A DNA stretch of 29,280 nucleotides from the NCBI GenBank assembly GCA_035686805.1, contig DASRZD010000350.1:1-29280 (forward strand), written 5' to 3'. How positions within the stretch are numbered: the first letter of the stretch is position 1; every line of letters starts with the position of its first letter. The translations under genes and the position numbers were made by a program. The DNA comes from Armatimonadota bacterium (GTDB lineage Bacteria; Armatimonadota; UBA5829; DTJY01). Positions 2,013 to 24,826 of this stretch are shown here, piece after piece. The notes under the pieces were generated by a model. It saw only the letters and a program-made list of their open reading frames with translations, had not been told where the DNA came from and did no database searches.

Positions 2013-2049
2013 TTTCCCTCCATCTGCGTCTATCGGCGTTCATCGGCGG

Positions 2050-5611: not shown

Positions 5612-7281
5612 AGGTACACCTCCTTCCAGGCATCGGCGTAGTCTCCCTTGAAGTAATACACCAGGGCCAGGTTGTTATGCGCTGCGGGGAAATCCGGTCT
5701 TATGCGGATCGCTTCCTGATATTCCCTCACCGCGCCATCGAGGTCGCCGCTCTGGTGCAGAACCAATCCGGTATTGTAGTGCGTCTCGGCGGACTGAGGG
5801 TTCATCTTGGAAGCCTGCCGGCTGATCTCCGCAGCCTCATCCAGTCTGCCAGCCTTCTGAAGCTGGCTGGCGAGATTCGACCGGGCAGGCGTATAGTTGG
5901 GATTAATGTTAACTGCTTGCCTGTATTCCTCTAGTGCGTCTTCAGCCTTTCCAAGTTCCGCATATGCGCTTCCGAGGCTATTGTGCGCAATGTAGTTGTC
6001 CCGGGTTACCGCGATAGCATGCTTGAAAAGAGTCACGCTATCCCGCCAATATCCCACTTGAACCCAGGTCACAAGAGCTAGGGCGAGCACTACCGCTAGT
6101 CCTCCGCCGGCAATCGTCCTTTCTCCCTTTCTCCCTTCTCCAATGAACCATACAGCCGCTATGAACAGGCCTATCAGCGGAATATAGGTGTATCTGTCAG
6201 CCATCGCCTGACTCCCAACCTGTACCAGGCCAATGACAGGAACGAGGGTCCCAATAAACCAGAGCCATCCGAACAACAGGTAAGGTCTCCTCCGGCTTTC
6301 TCGTATCGCCGCATAGGTCAGCGCCGAGAGGAGGATAAGGGCGCCTGCCACTGCCAAAGATGAAAGGCTGTCCCCAGGGTGGGGATATGCCGCCGCCAAG
6401 TTCCTAGGCCAGATCATCTTGAGAAAGTAGCTCGCATAGGAGACAACGCCGTTTGACACACGCACTCCCAATTGCACGGCCTCGAATCCGCTGACCGCTC
6501 CACCTGTCTTTTGAGCAAGATAGGTTAGCACACTCGAACCGCCAGCCATGACGATGAGGGGCAGCTTCTCCCAGATCAATCTCCACCCCAGCCTGATTCG
6601 GTCGAGCGGCCAATAATCCAGCAACAGCAGCACGAACGGCAGCGTAACGAGCATCGGCTTGGCCATCAACCCAAGGGCGAACAGCCCCATCACCGGCAAG
6701 TACCTCACAGCGCCGGGCTTCGCGGCGTACCTCAGATAGGCGAGTATCGTCAGCATGAAGAAAAGCGTGCTGAGGACGTCTTTGCGCTCGGCCACCCACG
6801 CCACCGATTCTACGTGGAGCGGGTGTACGGCGAACAATGCTGCAACGAAGGCGCTCTTCCACATTGAGCCTGTCATTCGAGCGAATATCAGAAGCAGCAG
6901 CAGAGTATTCGCGATGTGAAGCAGCAGGTTGACCAGATGATGCCCCAGCGGATTAGACCCGAACAGGCGATAGTCCATCATGTGAGACATCCACGTCAAA
7001 GGATGCCAGTTCGAGGTATATCCGATGTTGAACGCCCAGCCCACATTCTTCCAGGTCAGGTGCTGGACGTGTCGATTTGCCGTCACATAGTCGTCGTCAT
7101 CAAAGTTGGTGAATCTGCACCTGAAAATTTGTGAGTATGCCGTCAGAGTCAATACAGCCAGGACCAGGCAGATCAGCAGGAGATGGCGTTTGTTGATCGC
7201 CTCTAGCTTCCTGGGTCCGGCATCTTTTCGGACAGAGCGTTCAGGAAGTCCGGTATGGGACTGCCGCCGTACTTTTGGCAC
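5533..7281 (-). CDS. TMTC-like GT-C glycosyltransferase with TPR array, paralog 2
   Basis: 582 aa with the same motif set: FTNFDDDD, NWHPLTWMSHM, HPLHVESVAWVAERKDVLST, LLDYWP, ADRYTYIPLIG. The tail is CRSQGGTPHPGFLQALAEKMPDPGH. The start is GTG 7279-7281 with AAGGAGG (7289-7295) 7 nt upstream. It overlaps paralog 3 by 79 nt. Confidence 0.85.
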   Translation of the reverse strand: MPKVRRQSHTGLPERSVRKDAGPRKLEAINKRHLLLICLVLAVLTLTAYSQIFRCRFTNFDDDDYVTANRHVQHLTWKNVGWAFNIGYTSNWHPLTWMSHMMDYRLFGSNPLGHHLVNLLLHIANTLLLLLIFARMTGSMWKSAFVAALFAVHPLHVESVAWVAERKDVLSTLFFMLTILAYLRYAAKPGAVRYLPVMGLFALGLMAKPMLVTLPFVLLLLDYWPLDRIRLGWRLIWEKLPLIVMAGGSSVLTYLAQKTGGAVSGFEAVQLGVRVSNGVVSYASYFLKMIWPRNLAAAYPHPGDSLSSLAVAGALILLSALTYAAIRESRRRPYLLFGWLWFIGTLVPVIGLVQVGSQAMADRYTYIPLIGLFIAAVWFIGEGRKGERTIAGGGLAVVLALALVTWVQVGYWRDSVTLFKHAIAVTRDNYIAHNSLGSAYAELGKAEDALEEYRQAVNINPNYTPARSNLASQLQKAGRLDEAAEISRQASKMNPQSAETHYNTGLVLHQSGDLDGAVREYQEAIRIRPDFPAAHNNLALVYYFKGDYADAWKEVYLCRSQGGTPHPGFLQALAEKMPDPGH

Positions 7282-9110
7282 AGGTGCACCTCCTTCCAGG
7301 CCTGAGCATATTCTCCCTTGAAGTAGAGGGCGACCGCGAGATTGTTGTGTGCCTCCGCCAAGTCCGGTCTCAGGCTGATAGCTTTATTATACTCCGCTAT
7401 CGCCTCATCGGTCTTATCCTGTTGCTTCAGCGCCAGGCCGAGATTCGAGTGAGCCTCCGCGAACTTCGGGCATATTCTGATTGCCGCTCTGAACTCCTGT
7501 ATGGCCGCATCGATGTTTCTCTGATCGTAGAGTACGCCGCCCTTCTCATAGTGCTCCACCGCCTCTTTCGAAGGCGGCTGAACGCCGGGCTGCCTGGAAG
7601 ACCTTTGCCTGGCGAGGGTAATCTCCATGTTCTTGCGGGCATCCTCCATATTAGGGTCAACGCTGAGCTCCCGGGAATAGGCGTCTATCGCCTCATCATA
7701 CTTGTGAAGGGCGAAGTACGCGTTCCCGAGGCTGAGATAATACACCGGCATGTCGGATCGCAGCTCAATAGCTTTTGTCAGGAGATCCACCGCCGGCTGA
7801 TACTTCCCTTGTCTCGCCAAAGCAGTTCCCAGACTGGAGTAGGCGACATAGTTGTTCTTCGTAACCTTTAGCGCATGGCTGAAAAGAGTTACGTCATTCC
7901 TCCAATGCCTGACTTGGTTCTGTGTGAGGATTGCCAATGCCAGGACAATCACGCCGGCCCCTGCCGAGAGGGCAATCGGCCTCTTGCCGAGTACTTCGGG
8001 GATACCCCATGCTAGAATGATAAAGATGCCGATCAGGGGCACATAGCTATACCGATCCGCCATGGATTGTGCGCCAACCTGCACGAGGCCGATGACAGGC
8101 ATCATAGTGCCTACGAACCAAAGCCACCCGACAGCCAGGTAGGGCCTTTTCGCACGGAAGACGAGATAGGATAACAAGATCAGGATGAATGTTGCGCCCA
8201 GGGCCTGCCATGCGGGCGGCTTCACCAAAGGATAGAAGACGGCCAGCTTAGCCGGCCACACTGTCTTGAGCAGGTAACTTACATAGGAGACCAGAGCATT
8301 GGAAAGCCTGTGAGCCATCGGCACTCGCGTGAGAGTGCTCATGGCCATTCCCTGATTCTGTGCCATGCAAGTGACCACGCTCGAGCACGCCGACAGGGCA
8401 AACAGCGGTATCTTCTCGACAATCAGCGCCTGTAACCCCTTTTCCTGCTTCTTCGTCTTGCCGAATCTCAGTCGCCCCAGCGGCCAGTAGTCAAGCAACA
8501 GGAGCACCAGCGGCAGCGTAACCAGCATCGGTTTCGACATGAGGCCAAGTGCAAACAGTGCCATCACGAGAGCATATCTAGATACCCCCGGCTTCTCTGC
8601 ATAACTCACATACGCCCACATGGTGGTTAGCCAGAAGAATGTGCTCAGCACATCCTTGCGCTCGGCTATCCAGGCGACCGACTCCACATGCAGCGGATGG
8701 AGGGCGAACAACCCGGCCACGAATGCACTCTTCCAGAGCGATCCCGCCTGCGGCGAGCCCGGTCGAGCCGTCATCCGCCTGAGAACCACCAGCAGAAGAA
8801 CGGTATTCGCCAGGTGGAACAGAAGGTTCGTCAGATGGAAGCCCATCGGATTCAGGCCATACAGCCCCTTATCCACCATGTATGACAGCCACGTCAGCGG
8901 ATGCCAGTTCGCCAAGTCGAAGGTCGTGAAGGCATACTTGATGCCGGCAAACGGCAGGTCGGCTTTGAGGGAATGATTGTCGCTTACGTACTTGTCGTCA
9001 TCGTAGCTGATGAACTCGCCTTGAAGAGCGCCGTGATAGGCCGCGGCAGTCACCAGGAGCAGGCCGACCGCAATCAGATGGAATTGATGCTTGTTCAGAA
9101 ACTTCTTCAT
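7203..9110 (-). CDS. TMTC-like GT-C glycosyltransferase with TPR array, paralog 3
   Basis: Same motif set: FISYDDD, NWHPLTWLSYM, HPLHVESVAWIAERKDVLST. The tail is CQKYGGSPIPDFLNALSEKMPDPGS. I prefer ATG 9108-9110 (MKKFLNKH, AGGTGA 5 nt upstream) over the track's GTG at 9119, which would overlap the paralog 4 stop. Confidence 0.85.
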   Translation of the reverse strand: MKKFLNKHQFHLIAVGLLLVTAAAYHGALQGEFISYDDDKYVSDNHSLKADLPFAGIKYAFTTFDLANWHPLTWLSYMVDKGLYGLNPMGFHLTNLLFHLANTVLLLVVLRRMTARPGSPQAGSLWKSAFVAGLFALHPLHVESVAWIAERKDVLSTFFWLTTMWAYVSYAEKPGVSRYALVMALFALGLMSKPMLVTLPLVLLLLDYWPLGRLRFGKTKKQEKGLQALIVEKIPLFALSACSSVVTCMAQNQGMAMSTLTRVPMAHRLSNALVSYVSYLLKTVWPAKLAVFYPLVKPPAWQALGATFILILLSYLVFRAKRPYLAVGWLWFVGTMMPVIGLVQVGAQSMADRYSYVPLIGIFIILAWGIPEVLGKRPIALSAGAGVIVLALAILTQNQVRHWRNDVTLFSHALKVTKNNYVAYSSLGTALARQGKYQPAVDLLTKAIELRSDMPVYYLSLGNAYFALHKYDEAIDAYSRELSVDPNMEDARKNMEITLARQRSSRQPGVQPPSKEAVEHYEKGGVLYDQRNIDAAIQEFRAAIRICPKFAEAHSNLGLALKQQDKTDEAIAEYNKAISLRPDLAEAHNNLAVALYFKGEYAQAWKEVHLCQKYGGSPIPDFLNALSEKMPDPGS

Positions 9111-9111
9111 T

Positions 9112-10851
9112 CTATTCACCTGGATCAGGCATCTTCTCCAGGAGCGCCTGGAGGAACTCGGGGTTCACGGCCGTACCATTTTTCTCCGCGAGTTGTACTT
9201 CACTCCAAGCCTCATCGTAGTTGCCGGCTGAATACAACACCACAGCCAGATTGTTGTGAGCCGGCCCCAAGTTAGGCTTCAGCCGAATCGCCGCCCGATA
9301 CTCTCCTATTGCCTCGTCAAACTTGCCCTGGTTTTGCAGGGCCATCCCGAAATTGTAGTGTACCAGCGAAGTGTCAATGCCGAGCTGTAAGCTCTTCTGC
9401 GCGTCTTCCAGATCCGGATTGGCGCTCAGTCCCCTGGCATACGATTGGGTGGCCTCCGCATACTTGCCCAGGGTGAAATACACATTTCCCAGGCAGAGAT
9501 GATAGTGAGGCATGTCTGACCTTATTGCGATGGCCTTAGTGAGATACTCGACCGCCTGCTGGTAATCCTCTTCCGCTGCCAATGCCGCCCCCAGGTTGGC
9601 GTATGCGATATAGTTATTCTTCGTCACCTTGATTGCATGGCCGAAGAGGGCAATATCGTTCCTCCAATATCGTACCTGAAACCAGGTCCCAACTGCCAGA
9701 CCGAGTATCACGAGGCAGGCGACCGCTGCCAGAGCATTCCGGGGCTTTTCCCCCCACCGTTTTGTCTCTACGACTAGATCAGGCATCAGCCAGGCGACTG
9801 CTATGAACAGACCTATCAGGGGCACATAGGTATACCTGTCCGCCATGGACTGCGCCCCTACCTGGACGAGTCCGATCACGGGAACCATCGTGCCCAGGAA
9901 CCAAAGCCATCCGACGGTCAGGTAAGGCCGCTTCGCCCGAATGACCAGATAGGACAATGCGATCAGCATGAGCAATGCACCCAGCGCCTGCCATGCGGGA
10001 GGTTTCACCAATGGGTAGAAAACGGCCAGCTTCGCCGGCCAGATAGTTTTCAGCAGATAGCTCGCGTAGGAGACGACGGCATTGGATAGCCTTTGGTCCA
10101 GAGGCACTCGACCGAGAGTGTTTAGAGCCTGCCCCTGACTCTGAGCCATGCAAGTGATGATGCTGGAGCATACCGATAAAGCAAGCAGTGGAGCCTTCTC
10201 CAGCACCAGACTCGGCCACGGCTTGTCTCTCTTCAGCGGCCAGTAGTCGAGCAGCAGCAGCACAAAGGGAAGAGTAACCAGCATTGGTTTCGCCATCAGC
10301 CCGAGGACGAATAAACCGACTACGAGCGCATACCGGGCCGCCCCCGGCTTCCCCGCATAACTGATGTACGCCCACATGGTCAGAAGCCAGAAGAACGTGC
10401 TGAGAACATCCTTGCGCTCGGCTACCCACGCCACCGACTCCACGTGCAGCGGATGAACCGCGAACAGCCCCACCACGAACGCACTCCTCCAGAGCGATCC
10501 CGCCTGCGGCGAGCCCGGTCGAGCCGTCATCCACCTAAGGACTATTAGCAAGAGAAGGGTGTTCGCCATGTGGAACAGCAGGTTCGTCAGATGGAAGCCC
10601 ATGGGGTTCAGGCCGTAGAGTCCCTTGTCCACCATATATGACAGCCACGTCAGCGGATGCCAGTTCGCCTGGTAGAACGTCGTGAATGCCCACTTGACTC
10701 CGGCGATCGGCAGCCCGGCCTGGAGAAACGGATTGTTGGTCACGAACCTGTCATCGTCAAAGATGACGAACCCATTCGTCCACACTCCCCAATAGGTGGC
10801 GAGCGTGAGGACGACGAGGGCCAGTATGACGACGACCAGGTTCTTTTTCAT
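9112..10851 (-). CDS. TMTC-like GT-C glycosyltransferase with TPR array, paralog 4
   Basis: Same motif set (FVIFDDD, NWHPLTWLSYM, HPLHVESVAWVAERKDVLST). It is the closest relative of paralog 3. The tail is AEKNGTAVNPEFLQALLEKMPDPGE. The preferred start is ATG 10849-10851 (MKKNLVVV), 1 nt after the paralog 5 stop. The track's TTG at 10908 adds a non-homologous extension. Confidence 0.85.
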   Translation of the reverse strand: MKKNLVVVILALVVLTLATYWGVWTNGFVIFDDDRFVTNNPFLQAGLPIAGVKWAFTTFYQANWHPLTWLSYMVDKGLYGLNPMGFHLTNLLFHMANTLLLLIVLRWMTARPGSPQAGSLWRSAFVVGLFAVHPLHVESVAWVAERKDVLSTFFWLLTMWAYISYAGKPGAARYALVVGLFVLGLMAKPMLVTLPFVLLLLDYWPLKRDKPWPSLVLEKAPLLALSVCSSIITCMAQSQGQALNTLGRVPLDQRLSNAVVSYASYLLKTIWPAKLAVFYPLVKPPAWQALGALLMLIALSYLVIRAKRPYLTVGWLWFLGTMVPVIGLVQVGAQSMADRYTYVPLIGLFIAVAWLMPDLVVETKRWGEKPRNALAAVACLVILGLAVGTWFQVRYWRNDIALFGHAIKVTKNNYIAYANLGAALAAEEDYQQAVEYLTKAIAIRSDMPHYHLCLGNVYFTLGKYAEATQSYARGLSANPDLEDAQKSLQLGIDTSLVHYNFGMALQNQGKFDEAIGEYRAAIRLKPNLGPAHNNLAVVLYSAGNYDEAWSEVQLAEKNGTAVNPEFLQALLEKMPDPGE

Positions 10852-10852
10852 G

Positions 10853-12868
10853 TCAGTTATCGTCCAGGCGCTTGAGACCGGCCATAGCCTCCCGGCACGA
10901 TGGGTCAATCTCCAAAGCCCGGCGATATTGCTCGGCGGCCTCGCTTAGTTTGGCCTGTCCCTCCAAAGCTTTCCCCAGGCTATAATACGCATTTGGCAGG
11001 TCAGGATTGCATGCAATGGACTTGCGATATTCCGGGATAGCCTCATTGACCTTGCCCTGGCCGGCCAGCGCCAGACCCAGATTGAGATGGGCCATGGCAT
11101 GATCAGGCTCGATCTCCAGCGCTTCCCTGAATTGCGCTATCGCTTCATCTATCTTGCCCTCGTTGACCAGAATGATCCCCAGATTGTTGTGCGGCGGGGC
11201 CATTTGGGCGTTGAGGGTCATAGCTTTCAAGTACTCTGCCTTTGCCTCATTGGGCTTTCCCTGCAAATCGAAAACAAGGCCGAGGTTATAGTGAGCCAGG
11301 GAGTAATTCGGATAGAGGGCGATCGCCGTCCGAAACTCATCCGCGGCCTCGTCGAATCTCCCCTGATCCATGAGAGCGCCTCCGAGGCAGAAATGCGCCA
11401 GATCGTTCTCGCTCTTGATCTTTAGAGATTCCCGATATTGCCTCATCGCCTCGCCATACTCCTTTTCGTCCTCGTGCGCCATGCCGAGGTTGATATGGGC
11501 GAGGTAGTTGTTTCTGGTCACATCCACAGCATGCTGGAACAGCATACGGCTGTCCCGCCAATATCCCACCTGAACCCGCGTGGCCGCTGCCAACATGATT
11601 ACGATCGCACACGCAACTATGACTAGAGCGTTCCCAGGTGTTTCACCCCATCGCCCCATCGCCCCATCGCCCCGTCGCTTGGTCTCCCTGGCAAGATCGG
11701 GGAGAAGCGAGGCAACTATCAGGAAGAGACCTATCAGCGGGAAATAGGTATACCTGTCCGCCATCGCCTGCCTACCTACCTGCACCAGGCCGATAACCGG
11801 TATGAGCGTGATGACAAACCAGAGCCATCCTACTGCCAGATAGCGCCGTTTTCGTCCATAATAGAACACTAGACTGGTAATCGCTGCCAGGATGACCGCC
11901 GAGCCGGCGATCTGCCACACTGCGAGCGTATTGCCGGGGTGAGGGTAGAAGATCGCCAGATTATGGGGAAAGACCGTCTTTCCGACATAGCCCGCGTAAG
12001 CGACGATGGCATTGGCCACACGGACTCCGATCGGATAGTTCTGGAATGAACCGACGGCGCCTTCCTTATTCTGGGCTGTGAAGGTTATTATTGCCGAGCC
12101 GGCGGACATCGCCAGAAGCGGCATCTTTTCCAATATGAGCTTCAATTTGCCTGACTTCTCCATGCGCCCGAGAGGCCAGTAATCCAGCAGGAGGAGTATG
12201 ATCGGCAGCGAGACCAGCATGGGCTTGGACATCAGCCCGAGGGCGAACAGAAGGATCACCGGCACGTACCGCTTAATGCTCGGCTTCTCAGAGTAGAGCA
12301 CATACGCGCCCATGGTGAGCATCCAGAAGAACGTGCTGAGCACATCCTTGCGCTCGGCCACCCACGCCACGGATTCCACGTGAAGCGGATGGAGGGCGAA
12401 CAACGCCGCAACAAAGGCGCTCTTCCATGATGAGCCTGCCTGCATCGAGCCGGGTCGAGATGTCATCCGTCGAAGCACGAGGAACAGCAGGACCGTGCTT
12501 GCCATGTGGAAAATCAAGTTCGTTGCATGATGGCCAGCCGGGTTATCCCGGAAGAATTGGTAATCCGCCATGTGCGACATCCACGTCAGAGGATGCCAGT
12601 TGCCCGCATAACCGACGTTGAACGCCCAGGCAAGACTCTTCGCGGTCAGCCCCGCCTTTACAAAGGAGTTCCTGTACACGTAGACGTCATCGTCATAGTT
12701 AATGAAGGCGTTTCGGAATACCGGCATGTAGACGGCGAGCGTCACCACCAGGAGGACGAGGCATATCAGCAGCACTTGCTTGTTTTCGTTTAGCGGCCGG
12801 GCGGAGGCATCTTTTCGGATAGCAGCCTTATGAACTCCGGGTGCGGGCTTCCTCCGTATTTTCGACAC
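10853..12868 (-). CDS. TMTC-like GT-C glycosyltransferase with the longest TPR array, paralog 5
   Basis: Same membrane motifs (FINYDDD, NWHPLTWMSHM, HPLHVESVAWVAERKDVLST). It is the only paralog lacking the EKMPDPG tail, ending instead in EIDPSCREAMAGLKRLDDN. I prefer GTG 12866-12868 with AAAGAGG (12876-12882) 7 nt upstream, which is homologous to the paralog 1/2 starts and gives the same 79-nt overlap. The ATG at 12884-12886 (track start) is the alternative. Confidence 0.8.
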   Translation of the reverse strand: MSKIRRKPAPGVHKAAIRKDASARPLNENKQVLLICLVLLVVTLAVYMPVFRNAFINYDDDVYVYRNSFVKAGLTAKSLAWAFNVGYAGNWHPLTWMSHMADYQFFRDNPAGHHATNLIFHMASTVLLFLVLRRMTSRPGSMQAGSSWKSAFVAALFALHPLHVESVAWVAERKDVLSTFFWMLTMGAYVLYSEKPSIKRYVPVILLFALGLMSKPMLVSLPIILLLLDYWPLGRMEKSGKLKLILEKMPLLAMSAGSAIITFTAQNKEGAVGSFQNYPIGVRVANAIVAYAGYVGKTVFPHNLAIFYPHPGNTLAVWQIAGSAVILAAITSLVFYYGRKRRYLAVGWLWFVITLIPVIGLVQVGRQAMADRYTYFPLIGLFLIVASLLPDLARETKRRGDGAMGRWGETPGNALVIVACAIVIMLAAATRVQVGYWRDSRMLFQHAVDVTRNNYLAHINLGMAHEDEKEYGEAMRQYRESLKIKSENDLAHFCLGGALMDQGRFDEAADEFRTAIALYPNYSLAHYNLGLVFDLQGKPNEAKAEYLKAMTLNAQMAPPHNNLGIILVNEGKIDEAIAQFREALEIEPDHAMAHLNLGLALAGQGKVNEAIPEYRKSIACNPDLPNAYYSLGKALEGQAKLSEAAEQYRRALEIDPSCREAMAGLKRLDDN
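11646..11677 (-). repeat. 8-nt tandem repeat inside the paralog 5 coding sequence
   Basis: Plus strand reads ccccatcg ccccatcg ccccatcg ccccgtcg, which is 3 perfect units plus 1 degenerate unit. It encodes the loop RRGDGAMGRWGE. The unit length is not a multiple of 3. Confidence 0.8.
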
Positions 12869-14787
12869 AATTCTACCTCTTTCCATGCCTGGGCATAGTC
12901 GGCCTTTTCATAGTAGATCACTGCGAGATTGTTGTAGGCGGGGGCTAGGTTGGTTCTGAGGCACACAGCCTGATCGTATTCCTCTATCGCATCATCGAGC
13001 TTCTGCTGCTCCTCAAGCATCACCCCAAGGTTATAATGAGCGGCCGCCGACTGAGGATCCAGATTGAGCGCTATCTTGATCTCTCGAATTGCTTCGTCCA
13101 GTCTGCCTTGCTTGTGGAGTACGGATGACAGACTGGTGTGCGCCTCGACCAGACTCGGATCTATGTGCAGAGCGGCTTTGAACTCGTCCTCCGCCTGCTT
13201 GCCCCTGCCTTGCTCGGCATAGATATTGCCAAGGTTGTTGTGAGAGTTGGCGTCGTCGGGCCGGATGCTGAGCGCCTTTTTATACTCGGTGATCGCCTCC
13301 TCGACATCCCCCTTGAAGGTAAGCGCCTTCGCAAGATTATAGTGGGCCACGGCGAATCGAGGATTCAGGCGTATGGCTTCACGGATCTCACGAATGCCCT
13401 CATCAAATCCTCCCTGGACCGCAAGGACCATCCCCAGGTTGTTGTGAGCCGGCGGGTAGGTGGGGTCGATCTTCATAGCAGCCCTGTAGTGAACAGTCGC
13501 CTCGTCGAACTTCCCTTCGCCGGCCAGTGTTCGGCCAAGGCAATCCTCCATAACAAAGTTATCGGATGTGCAATCCAGCGCGTGCTGGAACAAGGTCTCG
13601 CCATCCTGCCAGTAGCCGACCTGGATTCGCGTCACTATGCCCAGGACCAGCAGCACGGCAATGCCCACAGCCGGAGCAAGCAAGGCCGCCCTCTTCCCCC
13701 TGACGTAGTCCGAGACCGCCCATACCACCATTATGAAGATGCCGGTCAACGGCATATAAGTATACCGGTCCGCGATGGCTTGCCCGCCCACCTGCACCAA
13801 TCCGATGACAGGCACGAGCATTCCAAGAAACCACAGCCAGCCGACCGTCAGATATGGCTTCTTTCGGCGAAGTGAGAATACGAGGAGCGATATACCGATC
13901 AGCAGGATTGCCGAAGCCGCCACTTTCCACGTCGCGAGGTCCGCGCCGGGGTGGGGGTACATGAGCGCCAGGTTATGCGGCCACACGGTTTTCCACAGGT
14001 AAGTCACATATCCTACCAGGGCATTGGCGATTCTGACCCCGAGAGAGAATTCCTGAAGACTTCCGAGAGCATTCTTGGTACCCTGGGCGATGACCGTCAT
14101 GACGCATGAAGCCGCCGCCAGGACCATCAGCGGGATCTTCTCCAGGACGAGGCCCGGCCATCGTGCCTTCCGGCCCAAAGGCCAGTAATCGACTAGTAGG
14201 AGCACGAACGGCATGGTAACGAGCATGGGTTTGGACAGCAGCCCCAGCGCGAATGCAGCGAGCACCGGCAAGTATCGGCCTATGCTCGGTTTCCTGGCAT
14301 ACCTCCGATAAGCCAGCATGGTCAGCAGCAGGAAGAAAGTGCTGAGCAGATCCTTGCGTTCGGCCACCCATGCCACCGACTCCACGCGAAGCGGATGAAC
14401 GGCGAACAGCGCCGCCACAAGCGCGCTTCTCCAGTAGCAGCCGGTCATCAAAGAGAGTAGAAGGAAGAGAAGGAACGCATTGGCGGCGTGGATCATCAGG
14501 CTGGTTAGATGGTGGCCGCCGGGGTAGGTGTTGTATAGTCCACAGTCGGCGGCGTGGGATATCCAGGTTAGCGGATGCCAGTTCGCAGCTCGGACGGCGG
14601 TAAATGCCCAGCGAACCGTCTTCATAGTCAGCCCTGCCTGGATATGCGGGTTATTGGCGACGTACTCGCCATCGTCATAGTAGATGATGAAGTCGTGCCC
14701 CAGCATCGGCCAGTAGGCAAGCAGAGTCGCCGTGATCAGAACAAGAGTGATAACAGCTTTCAGATGGCTTTTCATGAATTCTATCAT
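12790..14787 (-). CDS. TMTC-like GT-C glycosyltransferase with TPR array, paralog 6
   Basis: 665 aa with motifs FIIYYDD, NWHPLTWISHA, HPLRVESVAWVAERKDLLST and LVDYWP. The tail is CRKYGGSPHPEFIRLLSEKMPPPGR. The start is ATG 14785-14787, or the in-frame ATG 14773-14775 (MKSHLKAV). Confidence 0.85.
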   Translation of the reverse strand: MIEFMKSHLKAVITLVLITATLLAYWPMLGHDFIIYYDDGEYVANNPHIQAGLTMKTVRWAFTAVRAANWHPLTWISHAADCGLYNTYPGGHHLTSLMIHAANAFLLFLLLSLMTGCYWRSALVAALFAVHPLRVESVAWVAERKDLLSTFFLLLTMLAYRRYARKPSIGRYLPVLAAFALGLLSKPMLVTMPFVLLLVDYWPLGRKARWPGLVLEKIPLMVLAAASCVMTVIAQGTKNALGSLQEFSLGVRIANALVGYVTYLWKTVWPHNLALMYPHPGADLATWKVAASAILLIGISLLVFSLRRKKPYLTVGWLWFLGMLVPVIGLVQVGGQAIADRYTYMPLTGIFIMVVWAVSDYVRGKRAALLAPAVGIAVLLVLGIVTRIQVGYWQDGETLFQHALDCTSDNFVMEDCLGRTLAGEGKFDEATVHYRAAMKIDPTYPPAHNNLGMVLAVQGGFDEGIREIREAIRLNPRFAVAHYNLAKALTFKGDVEEAITEYKKALSIRPDDANSHNNLGNIYAEQGRGKQAEDEFKAALHIDPSLVEAHTSLSSVLHKQGRLDEAIREIKIALNLDPQSAAAHYNLGVMLEEQQKLDDAIEEYDQAVCLRTNLAPAYNNLAVIYYEKADYAQAWKEVELCRKYGGSPHPEFIRLLSEKMPPPGR

Positions 14788-19357: not shown

Positions 19358-22300
19358 CTAAACCTCCCGAATCCCGTCTCCATACTGGGCCAGCACTTTG
19401 GCATCCTTGCCGAGAAGGAACATCAGCGCCCGCTGAGCCGGCAACTTGATACTCAGCGTCTTCTGGCTGAATGAATCGGTCAGGCTGAACTCCTTATTCG
19501 CGTCCGTCTCAGACACAATGGAATACAGAACGGTCTCCTCGAAGAACTGAGGCCGAATAAGGATTCCGGGGTCTGCCTTATCCACCCTGAACGGCGGCTC
19601 GATGCCGGCCTGCTTGAGCGCATACTGATACAGCGCCGCCACCGGCTCCACATTATCCGCAAGCTCGAATGGAAGCGGCGTGAAGATCAGCTTGCCGTCG
19701 CCCTTCGCCTCTGCCTTCACGAATCCGCTCTGCCCGCCGACGACCGCCTTATCAATCCGATTGATCTTGTCGCCGCCGAAACTCAGCCGATAGCTGGTCC
19801 CGAACACGATCACGTCCTCTTCTCTTGTGACAGGCGCGATCGTGCTTTGGTTCCCCAGCCTTTCGACCGGCCGCCAATACTCGTCCCAATCAATCGGCCC
19901 TGTCACCAGCAGCACTGCGCCCGCCTCAACTGCCTTTATCAGCTTATCCCACGCCTGCTGACTAAGCGTCCTCGGCGACGGCAGCACGATCAATCGGCAA
20001 TTCCCCAGGTTCTCCAGGGTATACTCTCCAACCGCCCGCATGGGCATCCCGCAATGATAGTGCATCACCCGCACGCATGCCCTTGTCGCCGCCGACGCAT
20101 GGTTTCGGACCGAGAACATGTTCGAATGAGGGATCACCATGCAGACGTTCTCGGGCTTGCGCCCGGATGATCGAGGCTCACCGCGCTTGGTGAGGTACTG
20201 CCTCGCCTCCCTCCAGAACGTCGCCATGGGCAGGAGGACCTCCAACTCGGGCTTGATGGTCAGGTCTGCCCTGTTGAAGCCTATCGCCACCTCATTGTCG
20301 CTGGTCATGTAGACGTTCGTGTTCCAGATCCATTGAATGACCCCCGCCGCCCCTGATGCGAATCCCATCACGAATTTCCGCTCGAGCAGGTTTCGGCAAT
20401 CCTTCTCTGTCCGCCGATAGGTTCGATCCGGATTCTCGGCGAACATGATGCCGGTTTCCTCGATCACATTCGGCTTCTCCGGCGTCTTGCTGACCAGCCC
20501 GTCCCAGAGAAGATCATCGTTCAGCCACCACGTGTGCATGCATGTGAAGTCCATGTCCTTCCAATGGAACTGCGGATTCGGCCGCTCGAATGCACCGCCT
20601 TCCTCCTGGCCGACGGTGATTAGCTGCTTCGGATTGCCGTTTTGCCGAATGACTTCGCTCATCTCCCTCACCCAGCGATTGAAGATCTCCTGCGAGAACA
20701 ATCGGAAATCCAAAGCTCGCATTGGATGTGAGTTCTCAAATATCTGCCGATCATCGAAATCGCTGGTTGCCGGAAGCTCATCTGCATTTCGAGGAGTGGT
20801 TCTCCAGGCTTCTTCTCGATCCGGGCGTTCTTGAAGCCATTGTTCCCATTCTCGTTTTTCGAACTCATCGAAGTTAGGGCGGCAGCACCATCGGCGGCCG
20901 GAACTCTGAAATACCGGTTCGTTTATTAGATCCCACATCAGGTTGTTGAAATTGCTGAATCGCCTTGTGAACGCGGCGATGAATTCCTTTTGAGCCTTGA
21001 TGGCCCTCGGATCGAGATATGGGTTTTCGCCTTCCCACATCTCGGGCGTGAAACTGAAGAATGTGAAGATCACCGGCAGCTCGTACTTTACGGCGGTGAG
21101 CATGAATGCCATGAATGCCCGAATCACCCCTTCGTCGGGAGCGCCCGGATCGAGCATTGTTTTTCGAAATGCCGTCCAGATTCCTGTCCTCAGTATGTTT
21201 ACGCCCGCCGCGCTGATCTCCGCAAGATCCCTATTCCAGACGGCGGCGTTCGGCTCGAAGAGGAACTTCCGGTGCACGTCCGAGGCCATGTACGTCGTCC
21301 CCACCACAGGCACTTGCTTGTCGGTTCGCATGAAGAAGTCCTTTCCCGCGAGGAGGGGCTGAGTTCGGGAGACCATCGCAGCGTCGTAGCACCAGAAGCC
21401 GGTAGTGTGGTATGAGGCGAACTTATCGCTGAGGCCGGGATCGCCGGTCGAGAGCCTGGCCTCGACTATGTAGAGTCCCGGGCTGAGAGGAATCTCGATC
21501 GGTATGTCCATATAATACGGCGACTGGAAGTCCTTGATCTCGATGTTCTGGCTGGCGATGGTTATACTCTCTTTGCGGATGGTCAAATAGAGGTCCACCT
21601 CTCTGGGGGCTTTCTCCGGCTGGCTCGCATGGATGATCAGTGACGTCCGCTCATCCGGGTAGTAGCAGGCGAATGAGGGCCGAACCTGCAACTCCGACGG
21701 GCCCATCGCGGCGAATCCCCCGAGCCGGAAGAGTATCTCCTTCCTCAGCGCTTCGTCCGATGTGAAGTTTGCCAGCACCCATCGGCCCCCCGCGAACGGT
21801 CCGAACACCCGGTCAATGGCGATCACCGGGGCGACGAGCCTCTTGCCCTCATTATCCTCGCCGTAGAGCAGCGGCCGGAGGATGGCATCACGCGTGCCAG
21901 ATGTGCCCAATTCGTTCGGATGATCGTCCTTGCTCGTGAGGCGGACCTGCAGCTCGAAGACCTTGCTGCACGCGAAGTCCTCGATCAGGCCCGACAGGAG
22001 CGGTTCGGTCGTTATCGTGTCGTACTTCTTGACCCCGGCAGTCTCCACCGGGAACGCCTGATTGATCATCAGCTCCTGGTGATACTGCGTCTGGCGGATC
22101 TCCTGACGCCAGCCGTCTCCCTCACGCCGAACCGGGATGCTGAATGGCGCGCCGCCCAGGTTGAGGAAGTTCCCACCGGCCGCCAGGAAGTCATATATCT
22201 CCGGCCAGGCGTCTTTCGGGAATACCGAGCCGTATGGGTTGATGAACAGATCAACCGACGCCCGCTTCAGCAGCTTCTTCATGTCGGCGACGCCGGCGAA

Positions 22301-22411
22301 CTTCACCGACTCCATCGGCGGCAGCGCCTCGACGAGCTTCTGATGGTTGATCTCTGAAGTATCTACGAAGGGGAAACCGTCTTCCCTGAAGATGAGCACA
22401 CGAGCATCCAT
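19358..22411 (-). CDS. Large clan GH-A-like glycoside hydrolase (GH5/GH42-like TIM barrel with flanking GATase-like domains)
   Basis: About 1017 aa. The central region carries GVNILRTGIW, LMWDLINEP (the NEP acid/base motif of clan GH-A) and a later VIEETG candidate nucleophile. The C-terminal LIVLPSPRTLSQQAWDKLIKAVEAGAVLLVTGP resembles a GH42 trimerisation/GATase-like domain. GGAGGA abuts the first ATG (22417), so the ATG at 22409-22411 (MDARVLIF) is the better-spaced start. Confidence 0.7.
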   Translation of the reverse strand: MDARVLIFREDGFPFVDTSEINHQKLVEALPPMESVKFAGVADMKKLLKRASVDLFINPYGSVFPKDAWPEIYDFLAAGGNFLNLGGAPFSIPVRREGDGWRQEIRQTQYHQELMINQAFPVETAGVKKYDTITTEPLLSGLIEDFACSKVFELQVRLTSKDDHPNELGTSGTRDAILRPLLYGEDNEGKRLVAPVIAIDRVFGPFAGGRWVLANFTSDEALRKEILFRLGGFAAMGPSELQVRPSFACYYPDERTSLIIHASQPEKAPREVDLYLTIRKESITIASQNIEIKDFQSPYYMDIPIEIPLSPGLYIVEARLSTGDPGLSDKFASYHTTGFWCYDAAMVSRTQPLLAGKDFFMRTDKQVPVVGTTYMASDVHRKFLFEPNAAVWNRDLAEISAAGVNILRTGIWTAFRKTMLDPGAPDEGVIRAFMAFMLTAVKYELPVIFTFFSFTPEMWEGENPYLDPRAIKAQKEFIAAFTRRFSNFNNLMWDLINEPVFQSSGRRWCCRPNFDEFEKREWEQWLQERPDREEAWRTTPRNADELPATSDFDDRQIFENSHPMRALDFRLFSQEIFNRWVREMSEVIRQNGNPKQLITVGQEEGGAFERPNPQFHWKDMDFTCMHTWWLNDDLLWDGLVSKTPEKPNVIEETGIMFAENPDRTYRRTEKDCRNLLERKFVMGFASGAAGVIQWIWNTNVYMTSDNEVAIGFNRADLTIKPELEVLLPMATFWREARQYLTKRGEPRSSGRKPENVCMVIPHSNMFSVRNHASAATRACVRVMHYHCGMPMRAVGEYTLENLGNCRLIVLPSPRTLSQQAWDKLIKAVEAGAVLLVTGPIDWDEYWRPVERLGNQSTIAPVTREEDVIVFGTSYRLSFGGDKINRIDKAVVGGQSGFVKAEAKGDGKLIFTPLPFELADNVEPVAALYQYALKQAGIEPPFRVDKADPGILIRPQFFEETVLYSIVSETDANKEFSLTDSFSQKTLSIKLPAQRALMFLLGKDAKVLAQYGDGIREV

Positions 22412-22446
22412 ACGCATTCCTCCATACCATATTACAAACGCAGTCT

Positions 22447-22475
22447 ATTCTACATTATGGGCGCTGAGAGCGCAA
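22447..22475 (-). promoter_or_regulatory. Candidate promoter for the hydrolase operon
   Basis: The minus strand reads TTGCGC-17 nt-TAGAAT, about 30 nt upstream of the start codon. It is divergent from the islet promoter. Confidence 0.45.
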
Positions 22476-22513
22476 ATGGCCGATATGGTGGCAAGACAAC
22501 GCCCCAACGACCC

Positions 22514-22542
22514 TTGACTACCGGTCTTCTAAAGGCTAGAAT
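22514..22542 (+). promoter_or_regulatory. Near-consensus sigma70 promoter of the HNH/TIR islet
   Basis: TTGACT (22514-22519), an exact 17-nt spacer, then TAGAAT (22537-22542). The predicted transcription start is near 22549-22551, just before the reading frame opens at 22556. Confidence 0.6.
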
Positions 22543-22588
22543 GTACACAGAGTAATATCGGCGAAAGCCGAGTACTGAAGGATCAGAA

Positions 22589-23734
22589 CTGAGGTTCGCA
22601 GCCATCGCAAAAGGAACTGCAATACCAAAAGAGGTTAGAGATAAGCTGCTTGTAGAGGCCAAACACCAGTGTTCGAAATGCCACGAGAAGACTGCGCATA
22701 TTCACCATATCACCAGTTTGGTAAAGGGCGGCACCAGCGACGAAGACAATCTGATTGTGCTCTGTCCCACCTGCCATGACAATGTGCACCTGGAGCACAT
22801 CACGGCCGATCAGCTTCGTCTTTATAAAAGGGGCTGGGTCGCGGTATGCCGACTCCGCGACATCGGGCTATTATGTGAGGTAGGCGACAGGGAGCTTTCA
22901 GAGATACTTGAACGCATTAGGGATAACTCCCGGCTAGATAGAATGGTTCATATCCTGGGTGAGTTCTCTGGAGGCAGGCGGCCAGCTGTCGTCGATCCAG
23001 TTCCTCAACTGGTGACTACACTGATCGACATCATGGAAAACAGTGCGGGGCAAATGTCGACGACTGCCTCAGTCAAGAAGAGCCTCGCCAAGGAGTTCTT
23101 CACGTTTTACCAACTCTTACATCGCATGAGGAACAATACCCTTCACATCAAGCAACTGCTTGACACGGACAAGCACCTGGATGGGGAACCTACGAATCTT
23201 CATAAGACCGATATGCCAAAGCTCATTCATGACCAGGCTGCTACAGTATTCTCCATGTATAGATTGCTCGTGGAGAAGTGGGAGTTCTTTGAGTTATACA
23301 TTCCGGACTTTTCTTATCATCTCTGGGCTCTGTTCAATTGCAGGGAGGGCATCCTCTGTCCGATCGCCCATGGATGCCACCATCCAGATATGGATTCCGC
23401 TATCACGGTATTCACACGGCTTGACAGCGAGATGATAACTAGGGATTTCGTCCGCTGGATTCCGTTCTTCGACTTGGCAGCCCATAAGGATCACTACCAT
23501 CCCACCGTAAATCATCTATATGACGTTCATGGCTACGAGTTCCTGACGTTCAATGTTGCCATGAAAAACAGTGAGAATTTTCGATTTCTATCTAAGGAAT
23601 TGGAGAGAATTATTTCGCAGTTGACGGATGCGATCAAGAGATTTGGGGAGTTTCTGCGCGAACACTTTGATATGCCTGATATACTAGAAGTAAATAAGAA
23701 TTGTGAATTGAGGAACCCCAGACCATGGGGCTAG
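22589..23734 (+). CDS. HNH endonuclease domain protein with a large uncharacterised C-terminal domain
   Basis: The track ORF (TTG 22718) starts in the middle of the HNH motif. The same frame is open back to 22556 and encodes ...KLLVEAKHQCSKCHEKTAHIHHITSLVKGGTSDEDNLIVLCPTCHDNVH. That is a complete beta-beta-alpha-Me/HNH core with both CxxC pairs. No ATG, GTG or TTG precedes it. The best candidate start is CTG 22589-22591, with GAAGGA (22577-22582) 6 nt upstream. I cannot assign the remaining ~300 aa. Confidence 0.7.
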   Translation: MRFAAIAKGTAIPKEVRDKLLVEAKHQCSKCHEKTAHIHHITSLVKGGTSDEDNLIVLCPTCHDNVHLEHITADQLRLYKRGWVAVCRLRDIGLLCEVGDRELSEILERIRDNSRLDRMVHILGEFSGGRRPAVVDPVPQLVTTLIDIMENSAGQMSTTASVKKSLAKEFFTFYQLLHRMRNNTLHIKQLLDTDKHLDGEPTNLHKTDMPKLIHDQAATVFSMYRLLVEKWEFFELYIPDFSYHLWALFNCREGILCPIAHGCHHPDMDSAITVFTRLDSEMITRDFVRWIPFFDLAAHKDHYHPTVNHLYDVHGYEFLTFNVAMKNSENFRFLSKELERIISQLTDAIKRFGEFLREHFDMPDILEVNKNCELRNPRPWG

Positions 23735-23795
23735 GGGTAATCGATCAGGCCGTCGTTATTCGATCAAGCTGAGCGTGATCTTGCAGGAGGGTAGA

Positions 23796-24677
23796 ATGAA
23801 ACAGTCTGGAATATATGTGATCCAGCCATTCAAAGAAGAATATGAAAGAGTCTTTGCTCTGGTCGCGTCAGCCGCCGCTAAAGTCGGTGTTCCAGCATCT
23901 AACGCAGCATCTTGGCCATTGCAAACTGGTGACATAATGGGGAGGATTCATGAAGCGATACGAACAGCAGATCTCTTGATCGCAGACGCGTCGAACGCGA
24001 ATCCGAATGTCATGTATGAGATTGGCTTTGCTCAGGCGGAGAACAAACCGCTGATTTACATTGCAAGCAGTAGCAGGGTTGTTCCCTTTGACCTTGCTGG
24101 ATACCGTTTCTTAATATATGATCTGGTCAGCCCTACTGAGTTCGTGGATCGACTTGCAAATGCAATTCAGCAAGCACTCAATGAGCCCCAAGCTTTCACT
24201 CTCCCTCGAATCTCTGCCGAAAGAGACAAGCGTCAAAATGTATTTATCAGCTATAGCCATCATGATCGGGAGTATCTGGATCGACTATTGGTTCACCTGA
24301 AACCTTTGGAAAGAGAAGGTCTGGTGGACCTATGGGTGGATACTAGGCTTAAAGCCGGTGATCGTTGGAAAAAGGAGATAGAGAAGGCTCTGAACAGGGC
24401 GACCGTAGCTATTCTGCTAGTAAGCGCGGACTTCCTCGCATCCGATTTTATTACCGGCAATGAATTGCCTCCAATTCTGCGGAACGCAGAGGAAACAGGA
24501 ACTAGAATCGTTCCCGTCATCGTCAAGCCATGCAGGTTCATGCGTGATAAGAGCCTGCGGCACTTCCAAGCGATCAATGATCCAAAGGAATCGTTGATTC
24601 TCCTCAATCCAGGCGAGCAAGAAGTATATTACGATTTGGTGGCTGCGGAAGTTGAAAAAACACTACAGAGAGGCTAG
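23796..24677 (+). CDS. Fusion protein: N-terminal nucleoside 2-deoxyribosyltransferase/SLOG-like Rossmann domain + C-terminal TIR domain
   Basis: The start is ATG 23796-23798 with AGGAGG (23785-23790) 5 nt upstream; the track's GTG 23775 is less likely. N-terminal half: IYVIQPF...IHEAIRTADLLIADASNANPNVMYEIGFAQAENKPLIYIAS, an NDT-like signature. C-terminal half: NVFISYSHHDREYLDRLLVHL...GDRWKKEIEKALNRATVAILLVSADFLASDFITGNELPPIL...IVPVIV, a bacterial TIR signature. It includes the conserved Glu at the position of the NADase catalytic residue (GAA 24462-24464). Confidence 0.8.
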   Translation: MKQSGIYVIQPFKEEYERVFALVASAAAKVGVPASNAASWPLQTGDIMGRIHEAIRTADLLIADASNANPNVMYEIGFAQAENKPLIYIASSSRVVPFDLAGYRFLIYDLVSPTEFVDRLANAIQQALNEPQAFTLPRISAERDKRQNVFISYSHHDREYLDRLLVHLKPLEREGLVDLWVDTRLKAGDRWKKEIEKALNRATVAILLVSADFLASDFITGNELPPILRNAEETGTRIVPVIVKPCRFMRDKSLRHFQAINDPKESLILLNPGEQEVYYDLVAAEVEKTLQRG

Positions 24678-24826
24678 TGCAGTTCCGCCAGAGTAAAGCC
24701 GAATACTCAGGCTGCCACTCTTGGTATCGTTCGAAGCCCGTGCACTCGTGACCATCTGCTGCTGGTCCCATGAACTCTCCGTTGACTTTTTGCCTCTTCC
24801 TGACGTATTGTTTTATAGGCACTAAG

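Follow-up and report, generated by a model that had tools for sequence, protein, structure and literature searches.

Two adjacent genes, here called gene A and gene B, would seem from their sequence features to be conflict or defence genes gained by horizontal transfer. Both lie in a window of 29,280 nucleotides from an Armatimonadota bacterium, the window being the whole stretch of DNA that was analysed. An earlier note on this DNA had proposed that the two genes form one coupled, two-gene anti-phage system. Our analysis pointed in another direction. Since gene A and gene B are not partners elsewhere, each is most likely a single-gene module of its own, which makes them two separate defence candidates rather than a new two-gene system. 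The explanation that we favour, with a probability of about 60%, is that both are cargo of a hotspot, two self-contained conflict genes that are merely adjacent. Their adjacency in a low-GC islet would then reflect the shared hotspot and not a conserved two-gene system.

The islet and its genomic site

Between 22514 and 24677, the GC content was 48.1% (0.481), against 57.2% (0.572) in the rest of the 29-kb window, and the lowest value in any other non-overlapping 2164-bp window was 0.524. Taken more widely, from 22418 to 24769, the region had a GC content of 0.486 as compared with 0.572 elsewhere. Gene A had a GC3 of 0.574 and gene B one of 0.466, against a range of 0.67 to 0.77 in 15 other genes of the window. 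The low-GC islet of the earlier note was borne out by both measures, and the dip persisted when computed over the whole region. The left neighbour is a 1019-aa GH5-like gene on the minus strand (19358-22417), from which gene A and gene B are divergent, and a polysaccharide deacetylase gene follows them downstream; the description of a pair flanked by carbohydrate genes and divergent from a hydrolase gene was accurate. Gene A and gene B are co-directional on the plus strand, with a gap of 58 nt in which no terminator-like site was found. PADLOC revealed no further defence genes in the 29-kb window.

The islet is the core of a strain-variable region, 22479-24771, as defined by blastn against two related Armatimonadota, L093 and L094. 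Both relatives have both flanks, with 78-83% nucleotide identity, and homology stops at 22478 (L093) or 22453 (L094) and restarts at 24772 or 24780. They bear different cargo at the site. In L093, it amounts to 3.6 kb, with an MTase/NA-iREase1 fusion and a 422-aa protein of no known kind. In L094, it amounts to 4.9 kb, with an MTase fusion, a pentapeptide-TIR_2 protein and a pair made of an 84-aa protein and a PIN protein. Because these relatives have the same flanks and other cargo, the site between the GH5-like and the deacetylase genes is a variable hotspot for defence-type cargo, as observed by comparison with two related genomes. There is no tRNA at the borders of the islet, or anywhere in the window, and neither PADLOC nor Pfam suggested an integrase at the borders among the window genes scanned. 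The islet locus is fixed, being identical in seven assemblies (this one and six others).

The pair had been credited with its own promoter. A sigma-70-like match (22514-22542, plus strand) is present inside the variable cargo, with TTGACT at 22514-22519, a spacer of 17 nt and TAGAAT at 22537-22542, in agreement at 10 of 12 positions, but an equally good match arose by chance in ~32% of Markov-simulated 2.6-kb regions (~0.39 per region). The predicted promoter is plausible and statistically not compelling. In the presumptive 5'-UTR, a hairpin with a GNRA loop, TCGGC-GAAA-GCCGA, could be read from the sequence (22558-22571, plus strand). A 10-mer of this hairpin, GGCGAAAGCC, recurs in L091, 27 nt 5' of the ATG of P0004, a distant homologue, with marginal significance.

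Local alignment also brought out a degenerate direct repeat on both sides of the genes (repeat family D11, plus strand). The left copy, CAGAGTAA...AAAGCCGAGTACT, lies at 22548-22576, and the right copy, CAGAGTAAAGCCGAATACT, at 24689-24707, 12 nt past the stop codon of gene B. Its alignment score was 33, against 18.2 +/- 3.6 for shuffled sequences, and was reached by 1 of 500 shuffles, for regions that had been picked post hoc; the 13-nt repeat D11 taken alone is expected by chance. A target-site duplication was not retained on these grounds, with D11 at chance level and the longer, gapped repeat marginal, and the repeat is given here as a side observation.

Gene A: HNH core, domain X and start codon

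Gene A (22604-23737, plus strand) consists of 376 codons and a stop, with ATC 22604 as putative non-canonical start, and encodes an HNH domain followed by a region that we call domain X. The HNH core, CxxC...HIHH...N...CxxCH...H, lies at 22670-22789 on the plus strand. Pfam HNH (PF01844) matched at E = 3e-9 with 37.3 bits, for a cut-off of 21.4, and HNH families of PHROGs matched at E = 4e-9. The nuclease core announced in the earlier note, with the beta-beta-alpha-metal signature of HNH endonucleases, was thereby recovered, in a motif that begins 5' of the gene's single canonical start codon.

As for the some 300 aa which had been left unassigned, they correspond to domain X (22880-23734, plus strand), about 285 aa, mostly helical, to which no family or fold could be assigned. 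When all nine members were run against Pfam at E <= 1, the only hit was a single chance match to MauJ. A domain X profile found no match among PDB sequences, an AF2 model (pLDDT 66) found none by Foldseek, and NCBIfam and PADLOC gave nothing on gene A beyond weak HNH-level matches. The family is small. A profile search with domain X across 1.84 billion representative proteins returned seven proteins. The gene A family has about nine members in all, and a search of metagenome and viral contigs for additional relatives gave only the same organism and one contig already known. Domain X is joined to HNH in four proteins, to CHAT in one, to EAD7 in one (25.8 bits, below the Pfam cut-off of 32) and to nothing in three. 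The surroundings of gene A relatives are mobile or variable. The context of one relative includes an nSTAND3 gene and an integrase, that of another IS110 and IS3 transposases together with ParE/Phd, and that of a third a primase-polymerase with DUF4268 and PIN.

This distribution fits a gene made of a variable N-terminal slot for an effector or EAD and of a constant C-terminal domain X. Gene A would define a very rare domain, one that obeys the rules of effector exchange seen in bacterial conflict systems. Domain X may be the regulatory or sensing part of the protein, and the effector would here be an HNH DNase.

The start of gene A calls for comment. Its frame is open only from 22556, and the first ATG, GTG or TTG is TTG 22718, which falls halfway through the HNH motif. 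Gene callers begin the gene at this codon, which cuts the motif in half, and TTG 22718 has no ribosome-binding site. ATC 22604 is the codon aligned with Met1 of the gene A homologues, and GAGG (22591-22594) precedes it, 9 nt upstream. Six other assemblies have the same gene A sequence, ATC included, so the ATC is not a sequencing error. The claim of a complete HNH core stood, the motif residues being all in frame, with the correction that no ATG, GTG or TTG lies upstream of the core. The lack of a canonical start codon makes expression of gene A uncertain, and initiation at ATC would yield very little of the protein, or none.

A possibility was that gene A has lost its start codon and is dead or decaying, which would leave gene B as the one functional gene and make the islet in effect a single-gene insertion. 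The absence of a usable canonical start, with ATC at the Met1 position, speaks for it, and relatives are damaged too: the one in L004 is split by a frameshift and the one in L001 has ATA at the start position. We consider this unlikely, however, as the 376-codon frame is otherwise intact with every HNH motif residue kept, GAGG stands upstream of the ATC, and the locus is fixed in its present form in the seven assemblies. Moreover, the start position is an AUH codon in two of the four HNH-X genes, perhaps because selection has kept translation of the nuclease very low. A recurring AUH codon at this position could in that case be a means to tame a toxic protein.

Gene B: an NDT-like/TIR fusion

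Gene B (23796-24677, plus strand) encodes a protein of 293 aa, with an NDT-like domain and a TIR domain, which NCBI lists as 'TIR domain-containing protein [Armatimonadota bacterium]'. The strong AGGAGG ribosome-binding site attributed to it is found at 23785-23790 (plus strand), 5 nt 5' of ATG 23796, and the AF2 model of the protein had a pLDDT of 82.

The N-terminal domain (23808-24200, plus strand) has an N-glycosidase fold of the NDT/DNPH1/MilB type. Pfam Nuc_deoxyrib_tr (PF05014) scored 28.0 bits (E = 2.7e-6), slightly short of its cut-off of 28.8, phrog_3634 matched at E = 4.9e-21, a profile search of the PDB reached Rcl/DNPH1 at E = 3e-3, and Foldseek returned 8qc0 (NDT) and 8rps (DNPH1) with a probability of 1.00. 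The MYEIG motif of gene B aligns with GYELG in DNPH1 and HVEIG in MilB, with Glu75 (codon 24018-24020) at the nucleophile position, so that gene B has both the flavodoxin-like fold and the nucleophile Glu in x-E-[IL]-G of the NDT superfamily. Among 117 family members, 113 keep Glu75 and 115 keep Asp64. Of the 'NDT/SLOG-like' domain of the earlier note, only the NDT half was retained; no SLOG or LOG family matched in Pfam at E <= 1, and the SLOG reading was rejected.

The TIR domain (24237-24674, plus strand) was matched by Pfam TIR_2 at E = 3.1e-19, and the best PADLOC match of gene B was the ThsB1 model PDLC00420, at E = 8.9e-22. Foldseek paired the domain with the TIR domains of SARM1, BtpA and AbTir. 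Glu223 (codon 24462-24464) aligns with the Glu of YELDG in AbTir and is present in all 117 family members, which confirmed the claim of a TIR domain with a Glu at the catalytic position. Gene B, as judged from these matches, is a fusion of two predicted N-glycosidase-type folds, each of which stands in an effector position in other defence proteins.

We infer the trigger, the enzymatic activities and the defence role as follows. Assembly of gene B triggered by infection would turn on NAD+ cleavage by the TIR domain, leading to depletion or to an ADPR-type product, the NDT-like domain may hydrolyse or bind a pyrimidine (deoxy)nucleotide, and the outcome would be abortive infection. Gene B has no recognisable sensor domain, an observation that counts against our best explanation.

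The gene B family is widespread, strongly conserved and standalone. The protein database held 1839 relatives, the closest being 58-72% identical and belonging to several phyla, and about 290 were found in the 185,579 GTDB species genomes scanned, in more than 10 phyla. We analysed the neighbourhood of 80 of these 290 loci. There was no conserved neighbour, no neighbour cluster was common to more than five loci, and the 134 immediate neighbours with a Pfam match fell into 114 different families, none of which had more than two neighbours. Among 50,697 phage records, 72,556 plasmid records and IMG/VR, we detected no relative spanning the whole of gene B, the matches there being confined to the TIR or to the N-terminal domain. 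In the literature, we found no account of an NDT-TIR fusion, or of PF05014 combined with TIR. PADLOC-specific matches occurred in ~7 of 149 neighbours (~5%) within 5 kb of gene B relatives, counted without a control set; this apparently weak enrichment in defence genes also counts against our best explanation.

In many genomes, gene B relatives sit among housekeeping genes. Together with the weak defence association, this raised the idea that gene A and gene B are not anti-phage at all, and that they are selfish or addiction toxins, or nucleotide-metabolism enzymes, hitch-hiking in a recombination-prone site. The NDT superfamily does contain metabolic enzymes, DNPH1 and MilB, and gene A relatives adjoin transposases and toxin-antitoxin pairs. 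Yet several observations make such a role quite improbable. Bacterial TIR domains in which the catalytic Glu is kept are known, in every case tested, to act as NADases or to generate signals, be it in immunity or in virulence. The same site bears restriction-modification-type and TIR cargo in relatives, and in L015, beside a gene B homologue, an AbiJ_NTD5 protein has an NDT-like module of the gene B subfamily as its C-terminal part, fused in this way to an N-terminal domain of the Abi type. Last, gene B relatives are usually lower in GC than their surroundings, and such a patchy, low-GC spread across phyla is ill-suited to a housekeeping role.

Pairing and comparison with known systems

By tblastn, none of the 80 loci encoding gene B relatives contained a gene A relative, and no TIR gene was present in the readable contexts of gene A relatives. 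The earlier note had itself proposed to look for the two genes as conserved neighbours in other genomes, and the pair was not found together elsewhere. This argues against one coupled system, in which NAD depletion or a signal made by the TIR would trigger cleavage by the HNH nuclease. The other part of its proposal held: the pair matches no named defence system, PADLOC giving only a ThsB-type TIR for gene B and weak HNH matches for gene A, and no ThsA, cyclase, ATPase or methylase partner exists across the 29-kb window.

Given that they share one cargo, one strand, one promoter-like site, a 58-nt gap and a flanking repeat, gene A and gene B may have arrived together and may share their expression, so that a functional link peculiar to this lineage is conceivable. 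Such a link could take the form of a lineage-specific Thoeris-type system, with gene B as ThsB-like source of a nucleotide signal and gene A as its effector, the HNH DNase being set free once domain X has bound that nucleotide. Besides the layout of the pair and the ThsB1 match of gene B, this would agree with the joining of domain X to HNH and CHAT, which are effector classes of signal-activated systems, and with the finding that Thoeris TIR genes swap effectors, predicted DNases included (bioRxiv 10.64898/2025.12.03.692087). We nonetheless find it hard to favour. The count of 0 in 80 loci, the lack of any conserved neighbour of gene B, the TIR-free contexts of gene A relatives, the unequal GC3 of the two genes (0.57 for gene A versus 0.47 for gene B) and the missing canonical start of gene A all stand against it. 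In addition, the EAD7-X architecture suggests a protein-protein adaptor logic instead of a diffusible signal, and the motif strings of gene B do not appear in the accessible part of the Thoeris TIR list of the same preprint. It is more doubtful still that the two genes represent a new Thoeris-like pair, with the NDT-like/TIR protein making the signal and domain X as a new sensor gating HNH here and a CHAT protease in relatives. More probable than this pair, though still tentative, is the idea that the NDT-like/TIR proteins make up a defence system of a new kind, widespread and consisting of one gene.

Keeping to two independent genes as the preferred reading, gene A is best compared with proteins following the EAD principle (Kaur et al. 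2021, PMC8195603). Its family has their constant region, here the C-terminus, and an alternating N-terminal slot, occupied by EAD7, HNH or the caspase-like CHAT, and one of its members lies beside an nSTAND3 NTPase. It differs in that domain X matches no described domain, the family is tiny and the EAD7 match is below the cut-off.

For gene B, no CD-NTase or pyrimidine cyclase of the CBASS or Pycsar kind was present in the window, and the SAVED_TIR and Effector matches of PADLOC covered the TIR domain only, with no SAVED, STING or cNMP-binding sensor recognised on the protein. PDC-S66, a single-gene TIR candidate of PADLOC that appears in the literature only in genome-survey lists, is similar in length and in TIR placement, residues 124-241 of gene B aligning with positions 125-240 of the 282 in its profile; the match is modest (E = 1.8e-10) and restricted to the TIR part, so gene B is not a member. 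A likeness to Abi-type systems, single proteins in which a sensor that varies at the N-terminus precedes a C-terminal toxin, comes from the AbiJ_NTD5 fusion in L015. Its NDT-like module occupies the toxin slot of such proteins, and both TIR and nucleoside 2-deoxyribosyltransferase have been listed as toxin modules fused to AbiJ-NTDs (PMC3710099). Gene B, in contrast, has no AbiJ-NTD or recognisable sensor, and carries two effector-type domains in tandem.

As to Thoeris and to AbTir-type TIR NADases, the TIR domain of gene B matches ThsB1 (PDLC00420), and its closest solved relatives by sequence are AbTir, BtpA and PdTIR, with whose catalytic Glu its own invariant Glu aligns. Unlike these TIR proteins, gene B has an NDT-like domain N-terminal to the TIR, and no adjacent effector of the Thoeris type (ThsA SIR2-SLOG, Macro-TM, caspase-like, SLATT, CMP hydrolase-TPR and others) was found by PADLOC in the window or as a recurring neighbour in the 80 related loci. 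Standalone TIR proteins were explicitly left out of the 2025 systematic survey of Thoeris (bioRxiv 10.64898/2025.12.03.692087).

Another parallel is type VIII Thoeris, described in that survey as a TIR with ThsI, a 'CMP hydrolase + TPR' effector, for which MilB and DNPH1, the structural relatives of gene B, are cited. In type VIII as in gene B, a TIR goes together with a protein or domain of the NDT/CMP-hydrolase/DNPH1 superfamily. In type VIII, however, these are two separate proteins and ThsI has a TPR, whereas gene B is a fusion devoid of TPR; the example type VIII TIR sequences look unlike the TIR_2/AbTir-like domain of gene B. The window encodes no separate ThsI effector, its TPR proteins lying more than 9 kb away and being encoded by genes of the PMT_2/TPR glycosyltransferase type. 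An NDT-like/TIR defence system would be the equivalent of type VIII Thoeris in a 'single-chain' form, or it would sense phage-type modified pyrimidine nucleotides and respond by NAD+ depletion. If the gene B family does act in defence, it would add a widespread single-protein TIR module to the known repertoire, and would tie the NDT/DNPH1/MilB N-glycosidase fold to TIR chemistry in one polypeptide.

Probable independence of the two genes

We read the islet at 22514-24677, with a probability of about 0.6, as two independent single-gene modules lying in a hotspot. An earlier note had proposed a coupled two-gene HNH + TIR anti-phage system, a claim that would fall if the two genes were not conserved neighbours elsewhere. 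In 80 loci encoding relatives of gene B (23796-24677, + strand), tblastn detected no relative of gene A (22604-23737, + strand), and all-against-all clustering of 897 ORFs yielded no neighbour family common to more than 5 of these loci. The 134 immediate neighbours fell into 114 different Pfam families, each matched by at most two of them, and the GC of the gene B homologues was usually below that of their surroundings. Given the lack of a gene A relative or recurrent neighbour and the lower GC, gene B is a standalone, horizontally mobile gene. Conversely, no TIR gene was present in the readable contexts of gene A relatives (L001, an IS110/IS3 context, L098 and L004, all in other genomes). Since neither the 80 gene B loci nor the gene A contexts hold the other partner, the coupled system was not borne out. 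The top PADLOC match of gene B was ThsB1 (E = 8.9e-22), over the TIR part only, and a lineage-specific Thoeris-like pair seems unlikely beside the 80 loci without gene A.

A low-GC islet in a variable hotspot

The description of a low-GC islet stood. GC was 0.481 over 22514-24677 vs 0.572 in the rest of the window, and the lowest value among other non-overlapping 2164-bp windows was 0.524. GC3 was likewise shifted: 0.574 (gene A) and 0.466 (gene B) vs 0.67-0.77 in 15 other genes. On this Armatimonadota MAG contig, gene B has AGGAGG 5 nt before its ATG, and its product is named 'MAG TPA: TIR domain-containing protein [Armatimonadota bacterium]' at NCBI. On the + strand, TTGACT(22514)-17-TAGAAT(22542) was the best match of the region (10/12 positions), a grade found by chance in about one third of simulated 2.6-kb regions; it is a well-placed putative promoter.

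The left flank encodes a GH5-like protein of 1019 aa (minus strand) and the right flank a TPR/Big_7/polysaccharide-deacetylase protein. Loci L093 and L094 from related Armatimonadota genomes carry deacetylase orthologues (79-83% identity). On the left, nucleotide homology to the window ended at 22478 in L093 and at 22453 in L094, and on the right it restarted at 24772 and 24780, respectively, so that the variable segment in the window, promoter-like site included, is 22479-24771. At 3430-6945, L093 encodes an N6_N4 MTase fused to NA-iREase1 (PADLOC MTase_II, E = 1.7e-70) together with an unknown protein of 422 aa. The L094 cargo (1889-6651) comprises an unknown protein of 136 aa, an MTase fusion resembling that of L093, a 357-aa protein with pentapeptide repeats and TIR_2, and a toxin-antitoxin-like pair formed by an 84-aa protein and a PIN protein. 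In a more distant relative (57% identity), the upstream gene order was different and the islet was absent. The site between the GH5-like and deacetylase genes is a variable hotspot, which explains two unrelated modules side by side.

The different cargo between the same flanks supports, by association, a defence/conflict reading of the cargo, and the defence flavour of the pair is supported by domain content and hotspot. Ten other window genes gave no PADLOC match to defence-like genes, and specific PADLOC matches made up about 5% of 149 neighbours within 5 kb of gene B relatives, few and counted without a control set. A non-defence role seems the least probable reading. No tRNA was found in the window.

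A degenerate gapped direct repeat flanks genes A and B (22517-22603 vs 24662-24738), with blocks CAGAGT, AAAGCCGA[G/A]TACT and GTTCG[C/A]AGCC. Its local alignment score was 33 vs 18.2 +/- 3.6 for shuffled sequences, 1 in 500 shuffles reaching 33, with the regions chosen post hoc. It could represent the ends of a cassette that carried both genes together. Elsewhere in the window, six large, consecutive, partly overlapping ORFs occupy 3653-14787 (minus strand). The two scanned with Pfam are paralogous-looking TPR proteins, one with PMT_2. With another PMT_2 gene and a GT2 gene in the vicinity, the region has the look of an expanded array of glycosyltransferase/TPR genes.

Gene A, its start codon and domain X

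The earlier description of the islet was largely right, except for the start codon of gene A and the 'SLOG' label. The frame of the HNH core opens only at 22556, and its first ATG/GTG/TTG is the TTG at 22718, between the two HNH motif halves, which is why gene callers give a 338-aa product (P0001) without a Pfam HNH match. Homologue N-termini (proteins P0004 and P0128 and the L004 gene) read M-[T/A]-K-R-x-A-I-P-K. The window counterpart is I-A-K-G-T-A-I-P-K, with the ATC at 22604-22606 aligned with Met1 and GAGG 9 nt upstream. This start region was identical in six independent assemblies, hence the ATC is no sequencing error. In L001, the start-position codon (about 6095) is ATA, with AGGGGA upstream. 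Thus, AUH occupies the start position in two of four HNH-X genes, those combining HNH and domain X, and AUG in the others. It reflects either very weak non-canonical initiation or a lost start codon; it may serve to keep translation of a toxic nuclease very low, or it may be recurrent inactivation. The remainder of the frame is intact, with all HNH motif residues kept (Pfam HNH, E = 3e-9), and we consider it improbable that gene A is dead and gene B alone functional. The 5' leader contains a GNRA-loop hairpin, TCGGC-GAAA-GCCGA (22558-22571), whose 10-mer GGCGAAAGCC has an identical copy at 77-86 of L091, 27 nt before the ATG that starts P0004, a distant homologue (37% amino-acid identity).

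Domain X, the C-terminal ~285 aa of gene A, is extremely rare. Four proteins came out of a search of 5.8 billion, and seven out of an exhaustive profile search covering 1.84 billion representatives; metagenome and viral contigs, also scanned, gave no further ones. Domain X had no match in Pfam, PDB sequences or Foldseek, and its AF2 model was mostly helical, with low confidence (pLDDT 66). Its N-terminal partners were HNH (four proteins), a CHAT fragment (one, E = 1.2e-7), EAD7 (one, E = 9e-6, below cut-off) or none (three). In the 'EAD principle', a constant region is combined with an N-terminal slot holding an adaptor EAD or an alternative effector, for instance HNH or a caspase-like peptidase (Kaur et al. 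2021, PMC8195603); the gene A family is alike, with a constant X and swapped N-terminal HNH, CHAT or EAD7.

The surroundings of gene A relatives were mobile or variable. In L001, an nSTAND3 NTPase lies directly upstream of the homologue P0002 and an integrase downstream; the NTPase (2944-5898, 984 aa, C-terminal HEAT-like repeats) is co-directional and 65 nt away, and the two may form a two-gene unit on a mobile element. Another relative neighbours IS110 and IS3 transposases and a ParE/Phd pair, and that of L098 a primase-polymerase/AAA_25 gene, DUF4268 and PIN. In L004, a frameshifted HNH-X copy (1667-2843) adjoins a flavodoxin-like gene. Near 1929-1933, the frameshift separates an HNH gene of 104 aa from an X gene of 277 aa; a pseudogene, faulty assembly or a true split may lie behind this.

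Gene B and the nearest known systems

What is new here lies in two uncharacterised families, HNH-X and the NDT-like/TIR fusion of gene B, both built along known lines. For gene B, Pfam gave TIR_2 (E = 3.1e-19) and, at 28.0 bits and so below the cut-off of 28.8, Nuc_deoxyrib_tr. The AF2 model (pLDDT 82) showed two flavodoxin-like domains, one resembling the SARM1, BtpA and AbTir TIRs and the other NDT (8qc0) and DNPH1. In alignments, Glu223 fell on the Glu in YELDG of AbTir, and Glu75 (MYEIG) on the nucleophilic Glu of both DNPH1 (GYELG) and MilB (HVEIG). Conservation among family members was 117/117 for Glu223, 113/117 for Glu75 and 115/117 for Asp64. The family is large (1839 relatives in the protein database and, in a separate count, 290 in GTDB species genomes) and unusually conserved, its best 120 clusters showing 58-72% identity across Armatimonadota, Proteobacteria and other phyla. 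The TIR subfamily is also joined to HTH, GTPase-like and other modules. The NDT-like domain matches phrog_3634 (E = 4.9e-21), a phage family of unknown function, and residues 43-169 share ~30% identity with hypothetical proteins from temperate phages of S. aureus (e.g. OM439673.1, 8228-8584).

Our best guess is that gene B encodes an abortive-infection protein in which the TIR would act on NAD+, consuming or converting it, and the NDT-like domain on a pyrimidine nucleotide, by hydrolysing or sensing it. Anantharaman et al. 2013 (PMC3710099) count TIR and nucleoside 2-deoxyribosyltransferase among the toxins found in fusion with AbiJ N-terminal domains, so that both gene B domain types fill the effector/toxin slot of these proteins. 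The gene that immediately follows a gene B homologue in L015 (7012-7800) encodes a 262-aa AbiJ_NTD5 (E = 1e-29) + NDT-like protein, judged from its domains to be Abi-type with an NDT-like toxin slot; its NDT-like part belongs to the gene B subfamily (E = 5e-24 vs the family's N-domain profile). A Thoeris survey (bioRxiv 10.64898/2025.12.03.692087) left out standalone TIR proteins, and gene B motif strings were not found in the accessible part of its supplement. In the type VIII Thoeris that it describes, the TIR makes canonical cADPR, which activates a 'CMP hydrolase + TPR' effector. This is the nearest described logic to gene B, although the effector there is on a separate protein.
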